This document shows positions 3,369 through 14,300 of a stretch of 19,841 bases of DNA, in pieces. The stretch covers positions 1-19,841 of IMG/VR virus record IMGVR_UViG_2541047861_000012; one strand, given 5' to 3'. The notes under the pieces were generated by a model, which was not told the DNA's origin, made no database searches, and worked only from the letters and a program-made list of their open reading frames with translations. The translations under genes and the position numbers were made by a program. The stretch is from a virus. Lineage: Duplodnaviria > Heunggongvirae > Uroviricota > Caudoviricetes. Position 1 is the stretch's first letter. Each line of letters begins with the position of its first letter.

Positions 3369-3395
3369 CCCGCAAAATATTGCGGGCTTTTTTTT
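3369..3395 (+). terminator. rho-independent terminator oriented for plus-strand transcription
   Basis: 7-bp stem CCCGCAA (3369-3375) / TTGCGGG (3380-3386), loop AATA, then C plus T8 (3388-3395). The minus-strand RNA would have no U-tract after the hairpin (reads UAUCAAAAACGG). Confidence 0.5.
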
Positions 3396-6300
3396 AACGT
3401 TCTTCCAGAGACTGAATCCGCTCTTTTATCTTATCCATTTCTCTGCGCTGCCATGCTGCCTCGATATAGAATAAGAGATCAGGTCTGACCCCCCATCTAG
3501 ATCCTGCTGGCGTTATTTCAACGCGCTCAATGATGTCTTCCATTACCATCACTGGATTATCATCCTCATCAACAATGATGCTCCCGTCATTATCAGTCAG
3601 CTGTATTTCCCTTTGGCCAGTAATGACGTCATCATATACTGCGGGATAATCGTCATAGCAAAGAAAGGCATAGCGGCATGTTGTGCTTTCTTCTTCCATG
3701 AGTCCGTGAGAAATAAGAACATCACGAAGTTGCTGCGCGATTACACCATGATGTATCCTCGCCCCTTCTTCTCCCTTTATAGCGACAGCGTTCAGCCATT
3801 TATAAGCGATATACCTGACGTCACCCCAGGCATCCAGCAATGCTTCGTCAGGAGAGACCGGCTCTGTCTTTAATGTTCCGTCACTGGTAACCACAGGATT
3901 GGAGCCAAGATAAACTGTCGAGAACCTGTTTCCCGGACCACCAAGAGCATTTACATTATCAAGATAAGGTTTAACATCTCCGTTCTCAAAAAGATGTTCG
4001 AGTGCGTTATATACCGCGCGACGTGGAGTACTGCTTCCGGAACCATGCAACGTTATCATTGCACCATCTGCTGAAGACGTTGTTTCACCGCCGCTAACGA
4101 TTAATCTCTGAGCGGTAACATCATCAGACGGTACTTTCTTCGCAATAATGGCGTAATTGCCCTCCAGTTTGACTTCCGCGCGAACTTGTCCTGATGTACC
4201 TGCATGGACAGTCAGTGACTGGACGGCAACATCATCTGTGAAATCAACGGGTACAGGAACCGTCCTCACGCCGGACGTCGACATAAAAGTAGGAAGCGTT
4301 CTGTTAGGAGTGGCTCCGTAGACAAAATCCCTTGAAACAAATTCTTCCTGTTTAATTTTCACCCTGAAACAATACAAATCAGCCGGGTGACCATCGTGAA
4401 CATAAGGATATTTTCTGTTGTTATCCCCTATGCTCCATGGGTTTAGAAAGTCTTCCCCACCGAAAATGTAGTACAGCCAGTTGTCTTTGATACAAACTGA
4501 ACCAACACCAACCGCAGAGTTAACTATTCCGCCCTGATAAATCTGATCAGTAACATTAACCCACTCTACATTATCCAGACTCCACTCATTGACGTTAACT
4601 CTGGTCATAAATGTTCTTGGATAATTTCCTGCATAACGGTTATCAGGTTCTCCTCCTTCCCACTCACCAAATGCGCGCTCACTGCCAAAAATAATCAGCT
4701 CATCGCCAACTTTGGCAAAAGGAAGGTTTGAGTGATGAACATTATTTGGGAAGCGAAGAGAATTCCATGATGCACCTAAATCAGAGCTTCTGTGCAATGA
4801 ACTACCGGGTTGAGTACTTAATGTCCCCCTGGTCGTCAGATACAGAATGCCATCATAATATTTTACACATGGCTCAGATGCATTCGCCTCATATTCTGCA
4901 GGTATGCGTCTGCGAACAAAGCTACCAGGAGAACCGAAAGCATCAGAGAAATAGAGTATCCCAAGCTCGCGTGGACCAATATCACCATTATGGTAGCCAA
5001 CAGCAAAACTGTTATCGCTAATCGTCGCAAAACTGTGAATCTCAGTAACAGGAGTGCTTCCGTCAACAAAAGAAGAAATAGTTCCAAGACTGGTTTTTCT
5101 CCATGGTGACGAGTGAAATGATGTACCAAAACTCCAGTATCTACCCTCGTTATTCTGATCCACATCCTGAGTATTTTGCGTCGTAACTGTAAAAGTATTT
5201 TTATCAATAACAGTAGTCACCGTCATATTCCCGGTAACACCTGTAACACCAGAGTTTGAGAAGTTGACAAAATCACCAGCAAATAATCCGTGATCAGTAA
5301 TGCGAATATAAGCGACTTGCTGATTTGCTGCTTTCGTTATACCACCATAAACGCGAAGGCTGCGACTCATTGGACGATCCCACAACTCTGCAACCTGCAG
5401 TTTATTTCCGCGCACGGTCCGCGTCTCAATTACAGCAAAAAGGCGATTTCTGACAACCCCCATACTCATGCAGTGATAGTTAACTGTGGGATAGTTTTCA
5501 TGTAAATCTGTAAGCCATTCCGGCGTTGTCCAGGTCTTCCCGTCATCTCCTGAGCGAACCCATGCAACATGGAGGTTATTTACACCATGGCGGTCTCCAG
5601 CCATAAAAGGCGCATAGATGACATTGTCATATACAAACGTTTTATCCTGCGTCCAGGCGTTGTACCACGGTGTATCTGTAATTTTAAATAACTCTCCCTG
5701 GATAAAATCTTCAGAAGCATAAAAAAGAGGCTGACCCGGTATTCTCTCAAATAAAAAACGAGCATTTTTAAATCGGCTGACATCCGGAAGAGTTGATACT
5801 TTAAAAGTAAGCCCTAATCCGTCAATTTTATAACCTGGAGATGAGGCTTCAAGGCACGCGCTTATTGCAGTGGAATCGTCATTTATACCATCACCAACAG
5901 CTCCAAAATCTTTGGGGCTAATAGCATCACGCATTTTATCCTGGAACGTTCGGTATACTGCCCCAGAACCATACTGAATAAACCAACCAAAACCACCAAC
6001 AACCCCGGCGATTGCAGCATCGACATAATTACGCATTGAGCGATTATTTACAGCGTCCTGTTCAAGTGATGGATCTGCAAGGTTAGAAATTCTGTTTTGC
6101 TTTGCATCGTAATATTTTGCAAGCAAAGATGGTTTCATCAATGCACGTCTGAACCATCCAAAACATTGCTGGATCAGCATCGTCAGGTAGTCAAAGGCAT
6201 CTTCATGCACTTCGGGGAAAAACTTTCCCTGATTGCGAAGGTCTGTCTCCTGCACTACATCAAGCACACGATCTATCGTAATTCTCCATCCAGTAGCAAG

Positions 6301-6513
6301 CGGCGACGGAAGAACCACAGAACCGCCACTATAAGTGCCCGCCCCAGTTACCGTATAACCGGTATCCAGAACCAATTCTGTTACGTTCCCGTTCAGGTCA
6401 GACACCTGAACAACCAGGTCGGATTTTCTGAAAATTCGAAAAGTATACGGAAACGATGTCGTAACGCCGTTACCGGTGTATTCGTTGTGGTCAACTTCGG
6501 TTGAGACCGTCAT
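3394..6513 (-). CDS. tailspike/tail fibre with depolymerase domain (T7 gp17-like N-terminal anchor, Asp-box sialidase-like region, C-terminal S74 intramolecular-chaperone domain)
   Basis: GGAG 7 nt upstream of ATG 6513; residues about 10-115 resemble the T7 tail-fibre N-terminal particle-binding domain; pectate-lyase-like motif DFGAVGDGINDDSTAISA (201-219); Asp boxes SGDDGKTW (321-328) and SSDLGASW (576-583); predicted autocleavage site VVTS/DG (877/878) followed by a chaperone-like C-terminus. Substrate not determinable by eye. Confidence 0.85.
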   Translation of the reverse strand: MTVSTEVDHNEYTGNGVTTSFPYTFRIFRKSDLVVQVSDLNGNVTELVLDTGYTVTGAGTYSGGSVVLPSPLATGWRITIDRVLDVVQETDLRNQGKFFPEVHEDAFDYLTMLIQQCFGWFRRALMKPSLLAKYYDAKQNRISNLADPSLEQDAVNNRSMRNYVDAAIAGVVGGFGWFIQYGSGAVYRTFQDKMRDAISPKDFGAVGDGINDDSTAISACLEASSPGYKIDGLGLTFKVSTLPDVSRFKNARFLFERIPGQPLFYASEDFIQGELFKITDTPWYNAWTQDKTFVYDNVIYAPFMAGDRHGVNNLHVAWVRSGDDGKTWTTPEWLTDLHENYPTVNYHCMSMGVVRNRLFAVIETRTVRGNKLQVAELWDRPMSRSLRVYGGITKAANQQVAYIRITDHGLFAGDFVNFSNSGVTGVTGNMTVTTVIDKNTFTVTTQNTQDVDQNNEGRYWSFGTSFHSSPWRKTSLGTISSFVDGSTPVTEIHSFATISDNSFAVGYHNGDIGPRELGILYFSDAFGSPGSFVRRRIPAEYEANASEPCVKYYDGILYLTTRGTLSTQPGSSLHRSSDLGASWNSLRFPNNVHHSNLPFAKVGDELIIFGSERAFGEWEGGEPDNRYAGNYPRTFMTRVNVNEWSLDNVEWVNVTDQIYQGGIVNSAVGVGSVCIKDNWLYYIFGGEDFLNPWSIGDNNRKYPYVHDGHPADLYCFRVKIKQEEFVSRDFVYGATPNRTLPTFMSTSGVRTVPVPVDFTDDVAVQSLTVHAGTSGQVRAEVKLEGNYAIIAKKVPSDDVTAQRLIVSGGETTSSADGAMITLHGSGSSTPRRAVYNALEHLFENGDVKPYLDNVNALGGPGNRFSTVYLGSNPVVTSDGTLKTEPVSPDEALLDAWGDVRYIAYKWLNAVAIKGEEGARIHHGVIAQQLRDVLISHGLMEEESTTCRYAFLCYDDYPAVYDDVITGQREIQLTDNDGSIIVDEDDNPVMVMEDIIERVEITPAGSRWGVRPDLLFYIEAAWQRREMDKIKERIQSLEER

Positions 6514-6650
6514 GTTAAATCTCCAGATAGTCGCAGCACCCGTTGCGCCGCATATCTGGTCATTCTATTACCTAAAAAACCACATATGGATAGAAAGACT
6601 GTGAATACGAATAGATATTACCTTTCGGGTAATTTGCAAAACGTGCTGGA

Positions 6651-6687
6651 TAGCAAACAAATTATTTGCTACTGTATAAATATACAG
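6651..6687. promoter_or_regulatory. operator-like tandem inverted repeats upstream of gene 6710-6967
   Basis: TAGCAAA-N7-TTTGCTA (6651-6671) immediately followed by CTGTATA-AA-TATACAG (6672-6687, contains TATAAAT), ending about 10 nt before the GGAG of gene 6710. Confidence 0.3.
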
Positions 6688-6709
6688 TTATTGCATGGAG
6701 AATATTAAG

Positions 6710-6967
6710 ATGCAGCAGTATCACTATCCACTGGAAGACGGATTTACCGAAAGGATTCACACGCCGGGAGGCGTCAGGTCACTGGTGGAGGGATCGCACT
6801 TGATGAAATTACTCCGGGATCTCGATAAGGATGGATTTAATGTCGATGGCCCACTTGCCGAACTGACTGCACTGATTAACTACGTCACCAGCTCACAGAT
6901 GTCTATGCAGGATCTGCAAACACATCTCGACTATTGTGCCGAACAATTACGAAAACAAACCAGATAA
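6710..6967 (+). CDS. small stand-alone homologue of the antirepressor C-terminal module
   Basis: GGAG at 6697-6700, 9 nt before ATG 6710 (the in-frame ATG at 6695 has no SD); 85 aa; SHLMKLLRDLDKDGFNVDGPLAELTALINYV...MQDLQTHLDY aligns with the shared C-terminus of 7283-7978 and 8987-9925 (SLLMNLLNQLQEDGHDVSGAAAELTTMFCYIV...LRDIQTHAEY). Confidence 0.55.
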   Translation: MQQYHYPLEDGFTERIHTPGGVRSLVEGSHLMKLLRDLDKDGFNVDGPLAELTALINYVTSSQMSMQDLQTHLDYCAEQLRKQTR

Positions 6968-6997
6968 GATTTGAAATTACCAATAGGAGTGCTTATA

Positions 6998-7014
6998 TTT
7001 ACCTTTGCGGTAAA
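6998..7014. promoter_or_regulatory. operator-like palindrome TTTACC-N5-GGTAAA (copy 1)
   Basis: TTTACC (6998-7003), TTTGC, GGTAAA (7009-7014), nested inside a longer inverted repeat GGAGTGC (6986-6992) / GCACTCC (7023-7029). Identical half-sites recur at 8151-8167. Confidence 0.3.
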
Positions 7015-7105
7015 TTTACATCGCACTCCTCTTGTGCCATAGTAATCGGGCACTGGCAAAATCCAGTGCCGGGATTGGCGTCCCGGATTACTAAAAGGCG
7101 CATTC

Positions 7106-7125
7106 ACCGCGCAAGCGGTTTTTTT
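7106..7125 (+). terminator. weak rho-independent terminator in the leader of the Bro-N antirepressor gene
   Basis: Short stem ACCGC (7106-7110) / GCGGT (7115-7119), loop GCAA, then a T-run to 7125; preceded by hairpins at 7049-7070 and 7069-7086 that share bases. Confidence 0.3.
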
Positions 7126-7282
7126 ATGCGTATAGCACGGCCACATTCGTATTATGGTGGGCTGTGTGGGGGCACCGAAAGGTGCGCCGGGTCCTTTTAG
7201 CCGGTTACGCCAACCCTGCACAGTTCACCACCAACCGATTGGCGTCGGTAGTGGTGATTAACCAGACTAAAAGGTAACCACT

Positions 7283-7978
7283 ATGACAGCTACAAAAAGC
7301 ACGTCCATTTTTTCTTTCGAATCCCAAGCCGATATACGGGTAATCGTCATTAATGGTGAGCCATGGTTTATCGCTTCAGATGTTTGTCGGGCTATAGGCA
7401 TAGCAAACCATCGAGATGCTGTTCGAAAACTTGATGATGATGAGAAGGGCGTCGCTTCAACCGACACCCCTGGCGGTGAGCAAGAATCGATCATCATCTC
7501 CGAGTCAGGCCTCTACACACTGATCCTCCGCTGCCGCGACGCAGTGACACCAGGCACTATCCCCTACCGCTTTCGTAAATGGGTTACAGGTGAGGTTCTT
7601 CCTCAGATCCGCCGCACCGGAAGTTACATTAAAAACTCGCTCCCGCAGGAAGAACGCATAAAGATGGTTGCCGACCAGGTAGCCAACGCCACAGCATCAG
7701 CAGTGATGCAGGCAATGAAGATAGAGAACAAAACCTACAGTGCCCCGCTGAAGCCCGGCTACCGCAGTTTGATTCACTCGCCGTCTGGTGTTCTCGGCCT
7801 GACGGAGAACTCACTGCTGATGAATTTGCTGAACCAGTTACAGGAAGACGGGCATGACGTATCGGGCGCGGCGGCGGAACTGACCACCATGTTCTGCTAC
7901 ATCGTCGGTGTGAGTAAATGCCTGCGTGATATCCAGACTCACGCGGAGTACATCAACGACAAAGCAGGATTCTTCTGA
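7283..7978 (+). CDS. antirepressor-like protein (Bro-N N-terminal domain plus shared antirepressor C-terminal module)
   Basis: AAGG about 8 nt upstream of ATG 7283; Bro-N signature FESQADIRVIVINGEPWFIASDVCRAIG...ESGLYTLILRCRDAVTPGTIPYRFRKWVTGEVLPQIRRTG; last 77 residues identical to those of 8987-9925. Confidence 0.8.
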   Translation: MTATKSTSIFSFESQADIRVIVINGEPWFIASDVCRAIGIANHRDAVRKLDDDEKGVASTDTPGGEQESIIISESGLYTLILRCRDAVTPGTIPYRFRKWVTGEVLPQIRRTGSYIKNSLPQEERIKMVADQVANATASAVMQAMKIENKTYSAPLKPGYRSLIHSPSGVLGLTENSLLMNLLNQLQEDGHDVSGAAAELTTMFCYIVGVSKCLRDIQTHAEYINDKAGFF

Positions 7979-8000: not shown

Positions 8001-8150
8001 CCTTTAAATAATTCTGTACAGATTGCAGACTGGGGGTGAATAGCGTACTATTACCTCACGGGTGATCCATAGCGATTAGGCACCGATACAGGAGGAGCCC
8101 ACATGAGAAAATTTGACGAGTACGAAGGCGTTTAACATTCGGATAGTTCA

Positions 8151-8167
8151 TTTACCCTAATGGTAAA
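8151..8167. promoter_or_regulatory. operator-like palindrome TTTACC-N5-GGTAAA (copy 2), about 40 bp upstream of gene 8207-8842
   Basis: TTTACC (8151-8156), CTAAT, GGTAAA (8162-8167); TA-rich -10-like sequence TATATATTAT at 8187-8196; GAGG SD at 8197-8200. Confidence 0.35.
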
Positions 8168-8206: not shown

Positions 8207-8842
8207 ATGCCACAACAACTGCTGAATCCGGCAAAGGTAACTGAGGTTTTCGCTCATCTGAACGAAACTCCAGACAACCGCGCCCTGTATTCAGAGTTAG
8301 TGAACGGCAACGATGTCACATCTGATGTCAAAGGCGTTTCTCTGGCTCCTGGATACCGCGTTGTCCGTGTAGACGATCGTAAGAAAGGCGAGATTCCACA
8401 GGCGCACTTTGAACTGTCATTGATAAATGACCTCACCGAAGAGGTAGTGTATTACAATCGTGTCATTATCCAGCCTGACAGCTATCTTAACTGCCGTCCT
8501 GTCACGCAGATATTGGTATGGAGAACCCAGAAGCCTAAGCATCGTGCTGTGCTTCATGATTTCGCTGGCATCATCTTCATGAACTACCTCTTGGAACGGT
8601 ACGATATCATCGTGTCTGATCGCAACCAGACTCATGAAGGCATGTCGTTCTGGCAGGCTCGCATGTATGACGCACTGGAACTTGGCCTCCATCTCTATGG
8701 TTACGACATGATGACATGCGAACTTATAGAGATGAATAACGAGGAAGAACTTGAGAAAGGTGAAACCTGGTTGTGGGGTGATGCGGAAAACTTCCAAAAC
8801 AGATTGGCCATAATTTCAAAGCATAAGCTGCCAATAAAATAG
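8207..8842 (+). CDS. hypothetical protein, 211 aa, no recognisable domain (orphan moron between the two antirepressor genes)
   Basis: ATG 8207 with GAGG SD 6 nt upstream; uninterrupted 211-codon ORF; no TM segment or signal peptide; own strong terminator at 8851-8871; lies inside the segment bracketed by the 256-bp inverted repeat. Confidence 0.7.
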   Translation: MPQQLLNPAKVTEVFAHLNETPDNRALYSELVNGNDVTSDVKGVSLAPGYRVVRVDDRKKGEIPQAHFELSLINDLTEEVVYYNRVIIQPDSYLNCRPVTQILVWRTQKPKHRAVLHDFAGIIFMNYLLERYDIIVSDRNQTHEGMSFWQARMYDALELGLHLYGYDMMTCELIEMNNEEELEKGETWLWGDAENFQNRLAIISKHKLPIK

Positions 8843-8963: not shown

Positions 8964-9220
8964 CACGTCCCTGTGCCGCCGTTCTGTCAGAAGAACCCTG
9001 CCTTGTCGTTGATGTATTCCGCGTGCGTCTGGATATCACGCAGGCATTTGCTCACACCAACGATGTAGCAGAACATGGTGGTCAGCTCCGCCGCCGCGCC
9101 CGATACATCGTGCCCGTCTTCCTGTAACTGGTTCAGCAGATTCATCAGCAGTGAGTTCTCCGTCAGGCCGAGAACACCCGACGGCGAATGAATCAGACTG
9201 CGGTAGCCTGGCTTCAATGG
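8964..9220. repeat. inverted repeat copy B (3' end of gene 8987-9925 plus about 23 bp)
   Basis: Partner of 7745-8000; see copy A. Confidence 0.85.
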
Positions 9221-9925
9221 ATAACCATAACATTTTGTCTGTGTTTTAATTGCCTCACGAAGCGCATCTAACATCTTGACTGCCACTTCATCATTCTCTG
9301 ATGCAGATCCAGCAGGGAGATACTCCCCTTCAAGCGGAACCCGAGCAACAAGAGACAACGCTTCGGCAAATTGATCTTCACCAATTTCTTTGTACGAACA
9401 GCCAAAATGAGATTTCAGTGACGACCACATGGTGATCATCGCCTTAGCCTGTTTTTCTTTTGGCAGAGACTGACCGCGACTCATGACGAGTTGTTTAATG
9501 GCTTCCTGCTGTTCAGTTGTTATTTTACCCGGCAACGCCTTTTTAGCTTTGCGTGGGTTAACCACATGGCCTTTAGTCCAGTACTCGTAGAGCACATCGT
9601 CACACTCTTCCTGATACTGGATTACCTTGTCGCGGATTTCAGGGCGGACTTTGTTAGGGCTGATGCTGTTCAACCAAGCTGCCAATTTTCGTAAAGCCAT
9701 ACAAATCATGGCTTGCACCCCACCGGCAGAAGGTATGGTGATTTCCACCATACCCTTCGAGAAGCGTTGAGAAATCTTCTTATGTTGAGATTTCCAGTCT
9801 AGCCCCATTCCCTCAACGATAGGTTTCATTGGGGTATACGGTTCGCCGTTGTGATTGACAACATAAAGCTCTGCGCCGTGGAATGGCACGTTGATAGTAG
9901 ATACTGCTGTTGCTATACTCGTCAT
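8987..9925 (-). CDS. ant: antirepressor (Ant-like; AntA/P22-Ant-type N-terminal domain plus shared C-terminal module)
   Basis: 312 aa; follows the arc-like gene on the same strand after a 72-bp spacer; N-terminal region INVPFHGAELYVVNHNGEPYTPMKPIVEGMGLDWKSQHKKI resembles phage antirepressor N-terminal domains; C-terminal 77 aa identical to 7283-7978. The symbol is given by position and domain analogy to P22 ant. Confidence 0.8.
   Translation of the reverse strand: MTSIATAVSTINVPFHGAELYVVNHNGEPYTPMKPIVEGMGLDWKSQHKKISQRFSKGMVEITIPSAGGVQAMICMALRKLAAWLNSISPNKVRPEIRDKVIQYQEECDDVLYEYWTKGHVVNPRKAKKALPGKITTEQQEAIKQLVMSRGQSLPKEKQAKAMITMWSSLKSHFGCSYKEIGEDQFAEALSLVARVPLEGEYLPAGSASENDEVAVKMLDALREAIKTQTKCYGYPLKPGYRSLIHSPSGVLGLTENSLLMNLLNQLQEDGHDVSGAAAELTTMFCYIVGVSKCLRDIQTHAEYINDKAGFF
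9891..9919 (+). promoter_or_regulatory. candidate sigma70 promoter for an antisense (sar-like) RNA
   Basis: -35 TTGATA (9891-9896), 17-bp spacer, -10 TATACT (9914-9919); predicted start near 9926, i.e. opposite the ant start codon (9923-9925). Confidence 0.4.
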
Positions 9926-9999
9926 GTCGTTAATTCCTATACGTAGTTTTACGATACTGAAGCCCTGACGGTCTGGCCACCGTGGGGCTTCGCTGTTTT
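9926..9999 (+). ncRNA. predicted sar-like antisense RNA covering the arc-ant intercistronic region and ant ribosome-binding site
   Basis: Transcript predicted from promoter 9891-9919; ends at stem GAAGCCC (9959-9965) / GGGCTTC (9985-9991) with inner stem ACGG/CCGT, followed by GCUGUUUUA (9992-10000). About 70 nt, same size and topology as P22 sar RNA. Confidence 0.35.
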
Positions 10000-10165
10000 A
10001 TGCCACGCTATTCTTCTCACCAGTGAGTCCATACACTTTCCTCAGCTGATAGATAATCTCTGTATTGAACTTTCGGCATTCTTTTTCGCCATTTCTTTCA
10101 ATAGCTAACTTCACATCGTCCGGAAAACGAACTCGTCGTTGACACATCTCTTTTGCTTTTTGCAT
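9998..10165 (-). CDS. arc: Arc-like ribbon-helix-helix repressor
   Basis: AAGGAG SD 7 nt upstream of ATG 10165 (the longer ORF from 10186 lacks an SD); 55 aa MQKAKEMCQRRVRFPDDVKLAIERNGEKECRKFNTEIIYQLRKVY... matches the Arc/MetJ RHH pattern (compare P22 Arc RWPREV...NGRSVNSEIYQRV); first gene of an arc-ant operon. Confidence 0.8.
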   Translation of the reverse strand: MQKAKEMCQRRVRFPDDVKLAIERNGEKECRKFNTEIIYQLRKVYGLTGEKNSVA

Positions 10166-10179
10166 TTCATATCTCCTTA

Positions 10180-10248
10180 GCCCCACCGTGGGGCAAAATA
10201 ATTGTCACACCGTGCGTCATTGATGTCAAGCACACGGTGAGGCATACT
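10180..10248. promoter_or_regulatory. immI-type control region: overlapping divergent promoters with repeated CACCGTG/CACGGTG operator heptads
   Basis: Near-palindrome GCCCCACCGTGGGGC (10180-10194); CACCGTG at 10208-10214; CACGGTG at 10233-10239; a fourth copy GCCACCGTGGGGC at 9976-9988. Minus-strand promoter: -35 TTGACA (complement of 10224-10229), -10 GACAAT (complement of 10201-10206). Plus-strand promoter: -35 TTGATG (10220-10225), -10 CATACT (10243-10248). The heptad core matches the CCACGGTGG core I recall for the P22 Mnt operator. Confidence 0.55.
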
Positions 10249-10285
10249 TCAATCATTGCAAGTAACTCAATATTTGGTGAAGAAC

Positions 10286-10717
10286 ATGAGCAGAGAAGAT
10301 CCACAACTAAGGATCAGACTTCCCGTCGAAGTAAAAGAAAAAATAGAAATTTCTGCAAAAGCCAATAAGCGATCAATGAACGCTGAAATAGTACAACGTC
10401 TTGACACCAGCTTTCTGAAAGATATTCATGAAGATGACGTAATTTCTGCTTATGAAGCAAAAATCATTGCAAACAATGCACGACATGAAATATCAAATAT
10501 TATTTTCAAAAGAACCTTTAATGAAATTAATAAGAAAATAACACTTGGACATACAAGTTTTTATATAAACCTTAATGACCTTGAACTGGAATCACTTGCA
10601 GATAATGATTACCAGATCATCTTTGAAAAAACATTTAATAGGCTCAATGAACTAGGTTACATCATCTGTGAAAACTCATGGGATGCAGATGGTTTTGGAA
10701 TTGAAATACCTGAATAG
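10286..10717 (+). CDS. mnt: Mnt-like ribbon-helix-helix repressor with a novel C-terminal extension (chimeric)
   Basis: ATG 10286 preceded by GGTGA (the ORF track begins at TTG 10256); N-terminus MSREDPQLRIRLPVEVKEKIEISAKANKRSMNAEIVQRL closely parallels P22 Mnt (ARDDPHFNFRMPMEVREKLKFRAEANGRSMNSELLQIV); 143 aa versus 83 aa for Mnt; the extra acidic C-terminal part lies in the AT-rich block. Confidence 0.75.
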   Translation: MSREDPQLRIRLPVEVKEKIEISAKANKRSMNAEIVQRLDTSFLKDIHEDDVISAYEAKIIANNARHEISNIIFKRTFNEINKKITLGHTSFYINLNDLELESLADNDYQIIFEKTFNRLNELGYIICENSWDADGFGIEIPE

Positions 10718-10807
10718 GAAGAACAAAAGGCGTGTACATATTACACGTCTTTAATACAATTGAAAAACGCCACATTACTGATGTATGTTACAACAAGGAG
10801 CGATATT

Positions 10808-11371
10808 TTGAAAACCATATCTATATTAAAGGTTGCATTAGGCGTCGCTATTATTTTGACTCTCTCAATATTGTTTTATTTTTACCACAAACAAACTGCT
10901 ATTGCTCTTGATAGTCACGCGGCAAACTCATTTTTCTCAGAGTACATAGTGCCGCTATCAGGAAGCGGTATAACAAATAAATATACTGACTATGACATCA
11001 AATATGGAATTGATGATGGGGAGACTATTGTATTACATGTAATCATTAAAAACCTAATGACAGTAAATAAAAATACAGACTTCAACGATAAAAATACAAT
11101 ACATCACAACAACAGCAAAACATTAATTTCTTATAGTAGCAACATCTATACGGATAAATACCTAAAATACATATCAGAAGATACAATAAAAGAAACCCGC
11201 GAAAAGTTAAAAAACATATATTGTGCATCCGGCAGTTTTCACAAATTATCGCCGCAAGAGCGTTTATTCTACGAAGCAAGAAAACAACGTAAGTCAATAA
11301 TATTACATTATTATGCTGATTCAGGGGAGACACTCATATTTAATATTGGGGTTTCCCCTGAATCATGCTAA
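10808..11371 (+). CDS. single-pass membrane protein of unknown function in the sieA position (candidate superinfection-exclusion/defence moron)
   Basis: AAGGAG (10795-10800) 7 nt before in-frame TTG 10808; alternative in-frame starts at ATG 10781 and TTG 10760 (ORF track). N-terminal TM helix ISILKVALGVAIILTLSILFYFY then an Asn/Lys/Tyr-rich soluble domain; very low G+C; stop 11 bp from the stop of the convergent 1004-aa gene. Confidence 0.65.
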   Translation: MKTISILKVALGVAIILTLSILFYFYHKQTAIALDSHAANSFFSEYIVPLSGSGITNKYTDYDIKYGIDDGETIVLHVIIKNLMTVNKNTDFNDKNTIHHNNSKTLISYSSNIYTDKYLKYISEDTIKETREKLKNIYCASGSFHKLSPQERLFYEARKQRKSIILHYYADSGETLIFNIGVSPESC

Positions 11372-11382
11372 AGGTGTTTAAC

Positions 11383-14300
11383 TCACCGCATCACCGGATC
11401 CACTTGGTTTATTAGTGGCGCAATCCAGAACAGGTTATTGCCGGGTATCAGGGTTCGGACATTATGCACAATACGATCACCGGCATCACCATTCAACACT
11501 CCTGAGGTCACATCAATGATGCTATCCGCAAGACCAAATGACGGTCCGAATAGAGATCCTACGAATCCACGACTGGCATACCTGGACTGTGTGCCAGTGC
11601 CAAATAAAGCCCCCAGCCCAACAGCACCACCAGTCGCCTTTTCAGCCATGTTGTTATATTCCATCAATGGCCCAAGAATACCGGATCTATCTATACCCTC
11701 AAGCACCAGCTTCTCTGGTGACCAGTCAACATTTTTCCCTTTCGATGCTTCTTTAAGCGCATAGACCAGTGAGCCAAGAGCAATCTGAAATGCAGTGCCA
11801 TAATAAAATTGCGCAGTTCCTTCCTGTAACCCACCAAGTAGCGCACGGTTGTATGAAGCCGTTGTGAATGATTTAAACTGAAATATCGTTCGCCCCATTG
11901 GAGTACTCGCCCATAAAGGTGTGTCACCAATACCGGGGGTGATGATAGTGTTATTAACGTCTTTCAGAACCGCTGACTGGAATACTCCGGCAACGTACTG
12001 ATCGTCCCATTTATCAAAGTTACCAATGTGCCATCCATCAATTACCTCACCATGTTTCTCGAACTCACTGCGAATACGCGCAGCCATATTGTCGTTGATA
12101 CCGAGTTTTGCCATGCGACGTGCAGAAAACGCACCAGACAAAATACCGTCTGACGTGAGCATTCCGTTCATGGATTTGTTTATGTCATTAAATCGATCCA
12201 TGAGTGTCAGCTTGCCGAAGGCATCAGTAATTCGCTCCATTCCTGCTTCGACTGCTGTTGTCCTGGAAGAACTGTCAACAAGATCACCAATTGCACGAGA
12301 ACGTGAATGTAGTACAGTTTCCAATCCAATCCCCATCTTCAACATCTCTTCTTTGCTGGCCTTAAATGCCGGTGATTGGGATATCTGAGAAGCATAGCCT
12401 TTCATGGAGTTACGGAAACCATTAACCATAACCCCTCTGGCCAGATCTGGAATAGCTGATACTGTCATTCCACCGAGTTTGGTCGTGAAGTTCACATCCC
12501 GCAGAAAAGCGCCAGCACGAACAAAAAACGAAGACGGGTCATCAGGCATACCATATGTACCAACAAGACGATCGCGTAATGCTGTTATGTCTCTGAGATC
12601 ATTTGCTCTTGATTTTGAAAGTCTGGACTGTTCTTTCCGTAATTCCTTTTCGTACTTTCGCATTAATGAATCGAGTTTACCCTGAGGAACAACTTCACCA
12701 TTGCTCTCATAACGTGCTTTCAGATTTGCCACACTTTCGTCATATTTCGCCTTTATTTTTTCAGGCACTTCCCGTAACAGACTGTCATATTCGTCCTCAA
12801 TTAATTGCAGACGCTCTGTCATAGTTCGTTTGCCAAATGTTCTCGTCAACTCAATTTCTGCTGCCGCTTCACGGATATGACGTTGTAGAACGTAATTCAC
12901 ATCACTTTCGAGATAATCCCTGATAAGACTATCAGGCACATTTAATGTTCTTTCTTTCGTACTACCTGCGGCTTTTACAGAAAATACGCTGACAAAATCC
13001 TGTGGAACCTTAGCACCAGTAATTTTATTAATTACGATATCCGCTGCAATTTCAGCATCCTCAGGATCCAGTGTTTTATTGCCTCTCGACCACCAGTCAA
13101 CCAAAATACGTCGAAATTTATCGCGTTCACTGATTATTTTTCCAACTTTATATATACGTGGGAAATAGCTTGCCTGGCCTAATGCTTTCAGTTCTTCATC
13201 TGGCGGCAATAAACCAAGCTTTTGCATTTCAACCTTCACCCGATTTAATACAGTTCGCATCGCCTGCGCCGTTTCCTGAACAACAGGATTAGCATGCACA
13301 TCACCGCTTCGCATAGCATTCCCAACCTGCTGACGAAATGAATCAAAACTCATGTCACCACCATCAGCTTTATACTTTGCGTATGCCTGTTTATTTCCGA
13401 CAACAACAGCAGCTTCTTCACGCTGCCATCCACGTGTACGGGTTTCTACAGCTACCGGTGTTTCAATCCCCCTTTCATTTCCTTTAAGGGTGAAATTATT
13501 TTCGGCTAACTCCAGCGTTGTTTTTCGCACTGTCTTGGACGGAGACTCCATTAACCTTGTCAAAGGAGTAAGATAGCTCCCTGCTTTCCATGCAGCCTTT
13601 CCAACCACCCCACCGGAAACAGGGGTTAAATCATCCAGAGTCGCTGTATCAATTTTCATAGCACCAACACTACCACCATCAGAAAGCGAAGCGGCAGCCC
13701 TGTCAGTCGCTGATGTAATGCTCATATTATCAAGAGCATCAGCAACCTCACGCGTGGCTGCAGCCCGGACGGATGGCGAAAGCGCAACACCAGCACTGGC
13801 AAACACGCCGCTCATCATCGCACCCGCTGCAATGTGAGCGGCACTTTCACCCCATGAGCGTGTTATTTGCTGATTATTCAGCACAACCTCGCTTAATGCT
13901 GTACCGGCTGCACCAATCGCAATCTGTGAGCCAATACGCGCCAGTGCCCCTCCTTGAGCACCGGGGATAAACATTGACGCAACAGTAACCGGATCCATTC
14001 CCGCAGCAATACTGGCAAGGGTTCCAACTACGCCAGCATCAGACAATAAACGTCTGTCTTCATTTTCATCATCTATCTGCTGCTTAATCCACGCCGTTTC
14101 CTCTGGCGATCGGGAATCTGCAAATTTCGCCCCCCAGTATTCATAACCGTGCAACTCATTTTTATCAGCATATGGGTTATAACCTTCGACCGGTTCAAAC
14201 TGTCTGGCTGGTCGGAAAAAACCAGCCAGAATATTGTTCTGTCGCATTGCAGCCCCCCATACGGAAGGCTCCGGTGGCAATGGCTCAGGATTAGCCCCTT

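Follow-up and report, generated by a model that had tools for sequence, protein, structure and literature searches.

What a free-standing copy of an antirepressor module is doing beside two larger antirepressors that end in the same module is the question raised by the small gene at 6710–6967 of the 19,841-nt stretch of phage DNA analysed here (hereafter, the window). A first-pass annotation of the sequence alone had proposed that the free module could titrate or mimic the interaction of the large antirepressors with the prophage repressor. We find that the gene is very probably the known SOS-inducible antirepressor of an epsilon15/phiV10/SPC32H-type Uetakevirus prophage, its large neighbours being Ant-domain fusions. 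The gene, its LexA control and the structure of the complex with the repressor Rep have already been published for the ortholog (2013–2016), so that the system itself is already known. The gene and its ribosome-binding site are as follows.

6710–6967, plus strand: ant, encoding an 85-aa stand-alone antirepressor, ortholog of SPC32H Ant, epsilon15 gp19 and phiV10 gp24
6697–6701, plus strand: Shine-Dalgarno element GGAGA (GGAG at 6697–6700), 9 nt upstream of the ATG, read from the sequence

The ORF is intact over its 85 aa, and the GGAG of its Shine-Dalgarno element is invariant across the eight phages aligned. A start at 6710 is in line with the crystallised SPC32H Ant, which begins MQRQY; an in-frame ATG at 6695 was rejected as the start, the equivalent ATG being out of frame in SPC32H and epsilon15. 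A phmmer search of the PDB sequences returned one strong match only, chain E of 5D50 ("Anti-repressor protein", 86 aa; E = 4e-47, residues 2–84), which is SPC32H Ant crystallised with its repressor Rep (chain A). Homology to this small protein of about 86 aa is full length, with 86% identity to SPC32H Ant, 82% to epsilon15 gp19 and 100% to an unnamed ZX5 protein. The SPC32H ortholog is recorded in GenBank as "ant: anti-repressor protein", at the matching position and divergent from the tailspike gene. The small protein gave no Pfam match to DinI, ANT (KilAC) or AntA at E ≤ 0.1 and no NCBIfam or PADLOC match, and a Pfam DUF724 match of 17.6 bits was set aside as noise against a cut-off of 38.4. 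The Ant family is covered by neither a Pfam nor an NCBIfam model, and the gene is labelled "hypothetical protein" in the 529 of 5,426 complete E. coli genomes (roughly 10%) that carry ant. The ORF, the Shine-Dalgarno element and the LexA box described below are intact in 523 of the 5,426, at 95–99% identity; carriers include K1 ExPEC/APEC strains and the Stx-converting phage TL-2011b.

The product is indeed a divergent copy of the shared module, at close to the 40% identity estimated by eye in the first-pass annotation. Aligned by BLASTP with the C-terminus of the 231-aa Bro-N protein, it has 31 identical residues of 74 (42%) without gaps, and the significance of the similarity, on which the original proposal had been staked beforehand, survives (E = 8e-16). 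Compared by profile, the module copies agree, both the small protein and the fused module matching phrog_450 (9e-48 and 6e-37, respectively). The complete conservation claimed between the two large antirepressors is also confirmed, their last 77 residues being identical. The "short unique N-terminus" attributed to the small protein, on the other hand, does not exist as such: homology begins within the first four residues (BLASTP aligns from residue 2, and the first invariant column is Y4), and the sole change in character between the small protein and the module concerns the last ~10 residues.

The E. coli chromosomal genes yfgH and yfgI account for bases 1–1071 of the window and the att core ATTGAGTGGGAATGATT, as published, is found at 1163–1179. 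These markers, within positions 1–1290, identify the window as the right end of an integrated, K1-specific Uetakevirus prophage, the other end of which lies at guaA in related genomes. By megablast, 6400–7300 is 98% identical to Escherichia phage vB_EcoP_ZX5 and 94% identical to phiV10, both Uetakevirus of the epsilon15 group. The 1039-aa tailspike (3394–6513, minus strand) carries the complete set of K1 endosialidase domains according to Pfam. It joins an epsilon15-type N-terminal adaptor to all of these domains and to an S74 chaperone, and Uetakevirus prophages with K1-capsule specificity are present in K1 ExPEC/APEC chromosomes. The small ant and the region of the large antirepressors lie between the tailspike gene and the ejection/structural genes (from 11383). 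This is the synteny of SPC32H-type Ant, with ant divergent from the tailspike gene, between it and the ejection/structural genes, in a Uetakevirus. The immI region of P22 occupies the equivalent place, between the ejection-protein and tailspike genes.

Two adjoining palindromes at 6651–6687, directly upstream of the gene, had been taken as a sign of tight regulation. Both are real (6651–6671 and 6672–6687), and the view that dyads at this position signal tight transcriptional control stands, but the two are not equivalent, one belonging to a LexA box and the other being clade-specific. A third palindrome, further upstream, had been overlooked. None of the three is assigned a strand.

6670–6689: predicted LexA (SOS) box TACTGTATAAATATACAGTT, 18/20 against the consensus, overlapping the ant core promoter and containing the second palindrome (6672–6687)
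6651–6671: first palindrome, TAGCAAA-N7-TTTGCTA, with perfect 7-nt arms; a dyad confined to one clade, its right arm being a conserved TTGnTA element
6617–6633: ATTACC-N5-GGTAAT palindrome, putative Rep operator upstream of ant, kept in 8/8 phages

The second palindrome reads CTGTATA-AA-TATACAG. The surrounding TACTGTATAAATATACAGTT matches the E. coli LexA consensus TACTGTATATATATACAGTA at 18 of 20 positions and lies 20 nt upstream of the ant ATG; the pattern CTGT-N8-ACAG has a single occurrence in the 19.8-kb window, which is this box. We aligned the tailspike–ant spacer of eight Uetakeviruses from Escherichia, Salmonella, Enterobacter and Klebsiella. In all eight, both half-sites (CTGT and ACAG) are unchanged, in flanks that have drifted to about 75% identity. 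Over 213 aligned nt, SPC32H and SPC32N show a single difference, a C>A change in the ACAG half of the box. Kim & Ryu (abstract, 2013) are said to have described a LexA-site mutation in the clear-plaque sibling SPC32N that makes Ant constitutive, and the C>A difference matches this mutant. The predicted box at 6670–6689, which aligns with the SPC32H box mutated in SPC32N, would sit over the ant promoter. A consensus scan called no strong plus-strand sigma-70 promoter at the LexA box; placed by eye, the ant promoter is TGGATA-17-TACTGT or TAGCAA-18-TATAAA.

The first palindrome has a different history. In the 196-nt intergenic region, three perfect inverted repeats have arms of 7 nt or longer where 0.17 would be expected, and 1.2% of shuffles reach 3. 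Among the 8 phages, however, this palindrome is a perfect dyad solely in the E. coli clade (the window, phiV10 and ZX5). Its left arm is unconserved in SPC32H, epsilon15, Tyrion, BUCT554 and a Klebsiella phage, in all of which the right arm persists as TTGnTA abutting the box. Neither the window nor the 39.6-kb ZX5 genome contains a further copy beyond chance, so nothing points to an operator family. We read the first palindrome as probable promoter sequence that is symmetric by chance in one clade.

The ATTACC-N5-GGTAAT site is annotated in the epsilon15 record as "protein_bind: repressor, lysogeny". Its core, TTACC-N5-GGTAA, occurs four times in the window (6618–6632, 6999–7013, 8051–8065 and 8152–8166) against 0.38 expected, and 14–15 times per related whole genome against 0.5–0.9 expected, a roughly 25-fold enrichment. 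Two copies lie between rep and a divergent cro-like gene in the related genomes. On this distribution the motif is probably the Rep operator, which suggests that numerous promoters, including those of the ant genes, are under direct Rep control. The sites occupy intergenic or promoter positions.

The rep gene lies outside the window, and the Rep partner is taken from the relatives ZX5, FDAARGOS_1300 and ExPEC XM. In ZX5, whose small Ant is identical, Rep matches 5D50 chain A over its full length (E = 4e-42). In FDAARGOS_1300, which carries a near-identical prophage, the Rep shares 98% identity with that of ZX5, and its only domains are HTH (HTH_3), with no S24 peptidase. Such an HTH-only architecture fits a repressor that would need to be removed by an antirepressor and not by cleavage. 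The ZX5-type and epsilon15 repressors have been reported to share 42% "homology" (PMC9782041). Whereas Ant keeps 86% identity to its SPC32H counterpart, the E. coli-clade Rep has moved much further from SPC32H Rep; conservation of the Ant–Rep interface is possibly incomplete, which slightly weakens the transfer of the mechanism.

The two large antirepressors are fusions that end in the module.

7283–7978, plus strand: Bro-N plus Ant-domain fusion, 231 aa, shared block at 7745–7978 (Pfam Bro-N, 2e-21)
8987–9925, minus strand: P22_AR_N plus Ant-domain fusion, 312 aa, shared block at 8987–9220 (Pfam P22_AR_N, 6e-45)

Besides its phrog_450 match, the fused C-terminal block matches 5D50 chain E (1e-14), and it is 36–42% identical to all stand-alone Ants; by these matches the C-terminus of both fusions is assigned as a diverged Ant domain. 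The 312-aa protein has no Pfam match to P22_AR_C and lacks the two-domain architecture of P22 Ant. The DNA of the shared 77-residue blocks differs at 16 of 234 positions, all synonymous (dN = 0). Identical residues combined with 16 silent differences mean that the copies are old enough to have diverged and that both are under strong purifying selection; the pattern thus indicates selection on both modules, and not a recent duplication. Nucleotide similarity between the two extends ~20 nt beyond the stop codon.

Searched exhaustively by profile, 1.84 billion representative proteins yielded the Ant domain in just 63 clusters, all of Ant type. In fusions it invariably forms the C-terminus, preceded by AntA, Bro-N, Rha or ORF6N, plus P22_AR_N in the window. 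The fused-type module is present in 34 of 50,697 phage records, all Uetakevirus-like, and all 34 are among the 35 records with a stand-alone ant. Finding the fused module exclusively alongside the stand-alone Ant speaks for a shared type of Rep as its target. The Stx2 phage TL-2011b and HEMP4 have three Ant-domain copies, like the window. Three "stand-alone" fused-type modules of 95–97 aa (P0182, P0185 and P0188) are probably not genuine stand-alone versions. P0185 is a 5'-truncated fusion, its ORF on a Raoultella contig running upstream into a Bro-N linker remnant with no LexA box; P0182 and P0188 are presumed remnants, since they begin in linker sequence common to P0185. In phiV10, the gene for the Bro-N protein phiV10p23 (phiV10 5876–6555) is frameshifted inside the Ant-type module; its C-terminal remainder probably survives as phiV10p22.

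The Bro-N fusion is 100% identical to ZX5 ORF4, overexpression of which lowered lysogens from 1e9 to 1e6 PFU/mL equivalents, about 1000-fold fewer (PMC9782041). The same 2022 paper makes no mention of the small gene, LexA or SPC32H.

How the fusions are controlled differs from the small gene. A search of the window for CTGT-N8-ACAG found no LexA box at either fusion, only that of the small gene, and therefore neither fusion senses SOS directly. Their own regulatory elements are listed below.

6971–7013, plus strand: promoter-like TTGAAA-17-TATATT with TTACC-N5-GGTAA (6999–7013) at −10/+1, start of the c4/Bro-N ant operon
7037–7125, plus strand: isrK-like RNA and a1-b1 target of C4 RNA, with an intrinsic terminator at 7106–7125 (Rfam isrK, 77.9 bits; gathering score 50)
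7150–7246, plus strand: C4-type antisense RNA (7150–7235) and second target copy (7237–7246) (Rfam C4, 77.7 bits; gathering score 45)
9927–9994, plus strand: sar-type antisense RNA opposite the leader of the P22_AR_N ant (Rfam sar, 44.8 bits; gathering score 43)
9998–10165, minus strand: Arc-like 55-aa ORF upstream of the P22_AR_N ant, assigned by inspection (...RVRFPDDVKLAIE...EIIYQLRKVY)
10286–10717, plus strand: Arc-family ribbon-helix-helix protein of 143 aa at the Mnt position, divergent from arc-ant (Pfam Arc, 1e-14)

The Bro-N fusion has the P1-type arrangement of a C4 RNA with duplicated a/b target sites upstream of ant. The decamer GATTGGCGTC occurs at 7073 and 7237, the second copy (7237–7246) lying 37 nt upstream of the Bro-N ant ATG, and the complementary ACGCCAACCC is at 7207 inside the C4 RNA. 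The segment 7037–7125 also scores 45.1 bits with Rfam c4-a1b1, just under the gathering score of 46.7. A 12-nt inverted repeat, CAATAGGAGTGC / GCACTCCTCTTG (6981–7034), brackets the palindrome at 6999–7013. No clear terminator was found between the small ant and the isrK terminator at 7106–7125, and transcription from ant may therefore continue into the c4 leader. The c4/isrK leader is ~80% identical in Stx-converting phages, where it precedes unrelated Ant genes; the "Ant" proteins behind it there lack the Ant module.

At the P22_AR_N fusion, the Arc-like ORF is annotated as a 168-nt CDS in FDAARGOS_1300. It has no Pfam or NCBIfam match and is "Arc-like" by inspection only, whereas the product of 10286–10717 is named "Arc family DNA-binding protein" by RefSeq. 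A perfect palindrome, GCCCCACCGTGGGGC, at 10181–10195 resembles the core of the P22 Mnt operator. From its gene content, 8987–10717 is recognisable as a P22-type immI cassette in which the Ant C-terminus has been swapped for an Ant-type module.

A low-GC island (31–35%) at 10200–11400 covers the Arc-family gene and a 203-aa ORF (10760–11371) that belongs to phrog_8033 (function unknown), with one N-terminal hydrophobic segment and a faint TIR-like PADLOC match (E = 0.006). The P22 gene at the matching position is sieA. A role in superinfection exclusion or defence is possible for this ORF, which may have entered the phage independently of its other genes. A 211-aa ORF at 8207–8842 (phrog_1349, function unknown) lies downstream of two of the TTACC-N5-GGTAA sites; its equivalent in related prophages is annotated as three short ORFs.

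With the three copies of the domain placed, the proposal that the small protein is a decoy can be weighed. It would have the free module titrate or mimic the large Ant–repressor interaction, as a modulator and not an inducer. The module's homology to the C-termini of both large proteins agrees with this, and SPC32H Ant is described as oligomeric in a passage of PMC9638917, making mixed oligomers or competition for the Rep surface conceivable. However, the stand-alone gene is the sole Ant-type gene in SPC32H and epsilon15, where it is present and functional although both phages are devoid of a large antirepressor; the function of the small Ant therefore cannot depend on the large ones, and the gene is not a secondary copy. 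Its ortholog in SPC32H was crystallised bound to Rep itself and both binds and disassembles it (5D50; PMC9638917). LexA control suits an inducer, not a damper, and co-assembly with fused copies is uncertain at 37–42% identity. We regard a decoy role as highly improbable. The relation is in fact the reverse of the one first proposed, the stand-alone protein being the minimal effector and the large proteins fusions that bear a diverged copy of it. No more credible is a small gene that has become a dispensable remnant, with the Bro-N fusion as the working antirepressor of this E. coli lineage. The effect of ZX5 ORF4, which shifts the lysis–lysogeny balance when overexpressed alone, and the RefSeq label of "hypothetical" given to the small gene everywhere would be accounted for, but not the intact ORF, Shine-Dalgarno element and LexA box of 523 among 5,426 complete E. 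coli genomes, nor the fact that in phiV10 the frameshifted gene is the Bro-N fusion and not the small gene. The fusions, being free of LexA boxes, would also provide no direct sensing of SOS.

A more elaborate control of the small gene is unlikely, if less strained. Here 6651–6671 would bind a second phage-encoded regulator, and in the E. coli clade ant expression would require that regulator to be lost as well as LexA to be cleaved. The dyad is a perfect 7+7 repeat that abuts the LexA box, perfect intergenic dyads exceed chance (3 versus 0.17 expected), and this one is kept in phiV10, ZX5 and the window. Its retention there is uninformative, since the E. coli clade is 95–98% identical overall, and the dyad is missing from the five other Uetakeviruses, including the experimentally studied SPC32H. 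It has no second copy in the window or the 39.6-kb ZX5 genome, and its conserved right arm is better explained as the TTGnTA promoter element. We retain the reading of the small gene as an SOS-inducible antirepressor under LexA.

The closest known system is that of SPC32H (Kim & Ryu 2013, J Virol 87:11775; Kim et al. 2016, PNAS 113:E2480; PDB 5D50), with which the locus shares an Ant of 86% identity and nearly equal length (85 versus 86 aa), a position divergent from the tailspike gene, a LexA box with an upstream TTACC-N5-GGTAA site and, in related genomes, a Rep of the two-HTH, non-cleavable type. It differs in its host (E. coli K1 here, Salmonella for SPC32H), in a cognate Rep far more diverged than Ant, in the two fused paralogs, which SPC32H lacks, and in the extra dyad abutting the LexA box, a feature of the E. 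coli clade. Tum of phage 186, GfoA/GfhA of the Gifsy phages (Lemire et al. 2011, PMC3121763) and AntC of N15 are alike in pairing a non-cleavable repressor with a LexA-repressed antirepressor whose gene lies outside the immunity region, but have no detectable sequence relationship to the small Ant. The immI region of P22 (mnt-arc-sar-ant) resembles the 8987–9925 locus in its P22_AR_N domain, sar RNA, Arc-like ORF and divergent Arc-family regulator, and also in its position between the ejection-protein genes and the tailspike gene. In contrast to P22, the C-terminal half of the 312-aa protein is of SPC32H-Ant type and not P22_AR_C, and the small gene lies outside the cassette under the control of LexA, not Mnt/Arc. 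Finally, the leader of the Bro-N fusion has the C4, isrK and duplicated-target layout of P1/P7 immI (c4-icd-ant) and Gifsy-1 isrK; here, however, this module regulates the Bro-N fusion and not the small gene, and the effector domain is unrelated to P1 Ant.

Based on the above, we propose the following working of the locus. In the lysogen, host LexA bound at 6670–6689, overlapping the ant core promoter, would silence ant. DNA damage would activate RecA and trigger LexA self-cleavage, allowing ant to be transcribed. The 85-aa Ant (a tetramer in SPC32H) would bind the prophage repressor Rep, presumably a two-HTH protein devoid of a self-cleavage domain, and split the DNA-binding Rep tetramer into dimers. 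Rep would then leave its TTACC-N5-GGTAA operators and the lytic genes would be turned on. The Bro-N and P22_AR_N fusions would operate on SOS-independent circuits, governed by the c4 antisense RNA and by mnt/arc/sar, respectively, and their most likely role is anti-immunity, directed at a Rep of the same kind. The homology, the LexA box with its conservation, the genomic context and the distribution of the operator motif were computed here; LexA control, Rep binding and tetramer disassembly come from published work on the ortholog. One passage (PMC7380047) has Ant made after LexA self-cleavage and inhibiting the repressor by protein–protein contact, and another (PMC9638917) has the oligomeric SPC32H Ant binding and disassembling the phage repressor. 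That the same mechanism operates in the E. coli prophage of the window, and that its fused Ant copies bind Rep, is inferred.

What is new here is modest: one effector domain is present in three copies under three control circuits, it has been shuffled as a C-terminal module into several "antirepressor-like" architectures, and its family is still without a Pfam or NCBIfam model. We suggest tentatively, as a reading somewhat short of probable, that the Ant fold is a portable repressor-disassembly domain and that the three paralogs converge on one Rep to form a three-input switch for lysis and anti-immunity. With the same reserve, the inputs may be the LexA box for the small gene, the Rep-operator promoter with the c4 antisense RNA for the Bro-N fusion, and mnt/arc/sar for the P22_AR_N fusion. 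Mixed oligomers of free and fused Ant are formally possible.

The identification carries little weight as a discovery; its practical value is to correct the annotation of a gene called "hypothetical". It predicts that the carrier prophages, some of which have K1-specific endosialidase tailspikes or stx, are induced via LexA and Ant and not by repressor cleavage, and that the ZX5 "anti-repressor" (ORF4) works through its C-terminal Ant-type domain. If the domain is indeed portable, this would give a concrete function to the C-terminal halves of some Bro/Rha/AntA "antirepressor-like" proteins.
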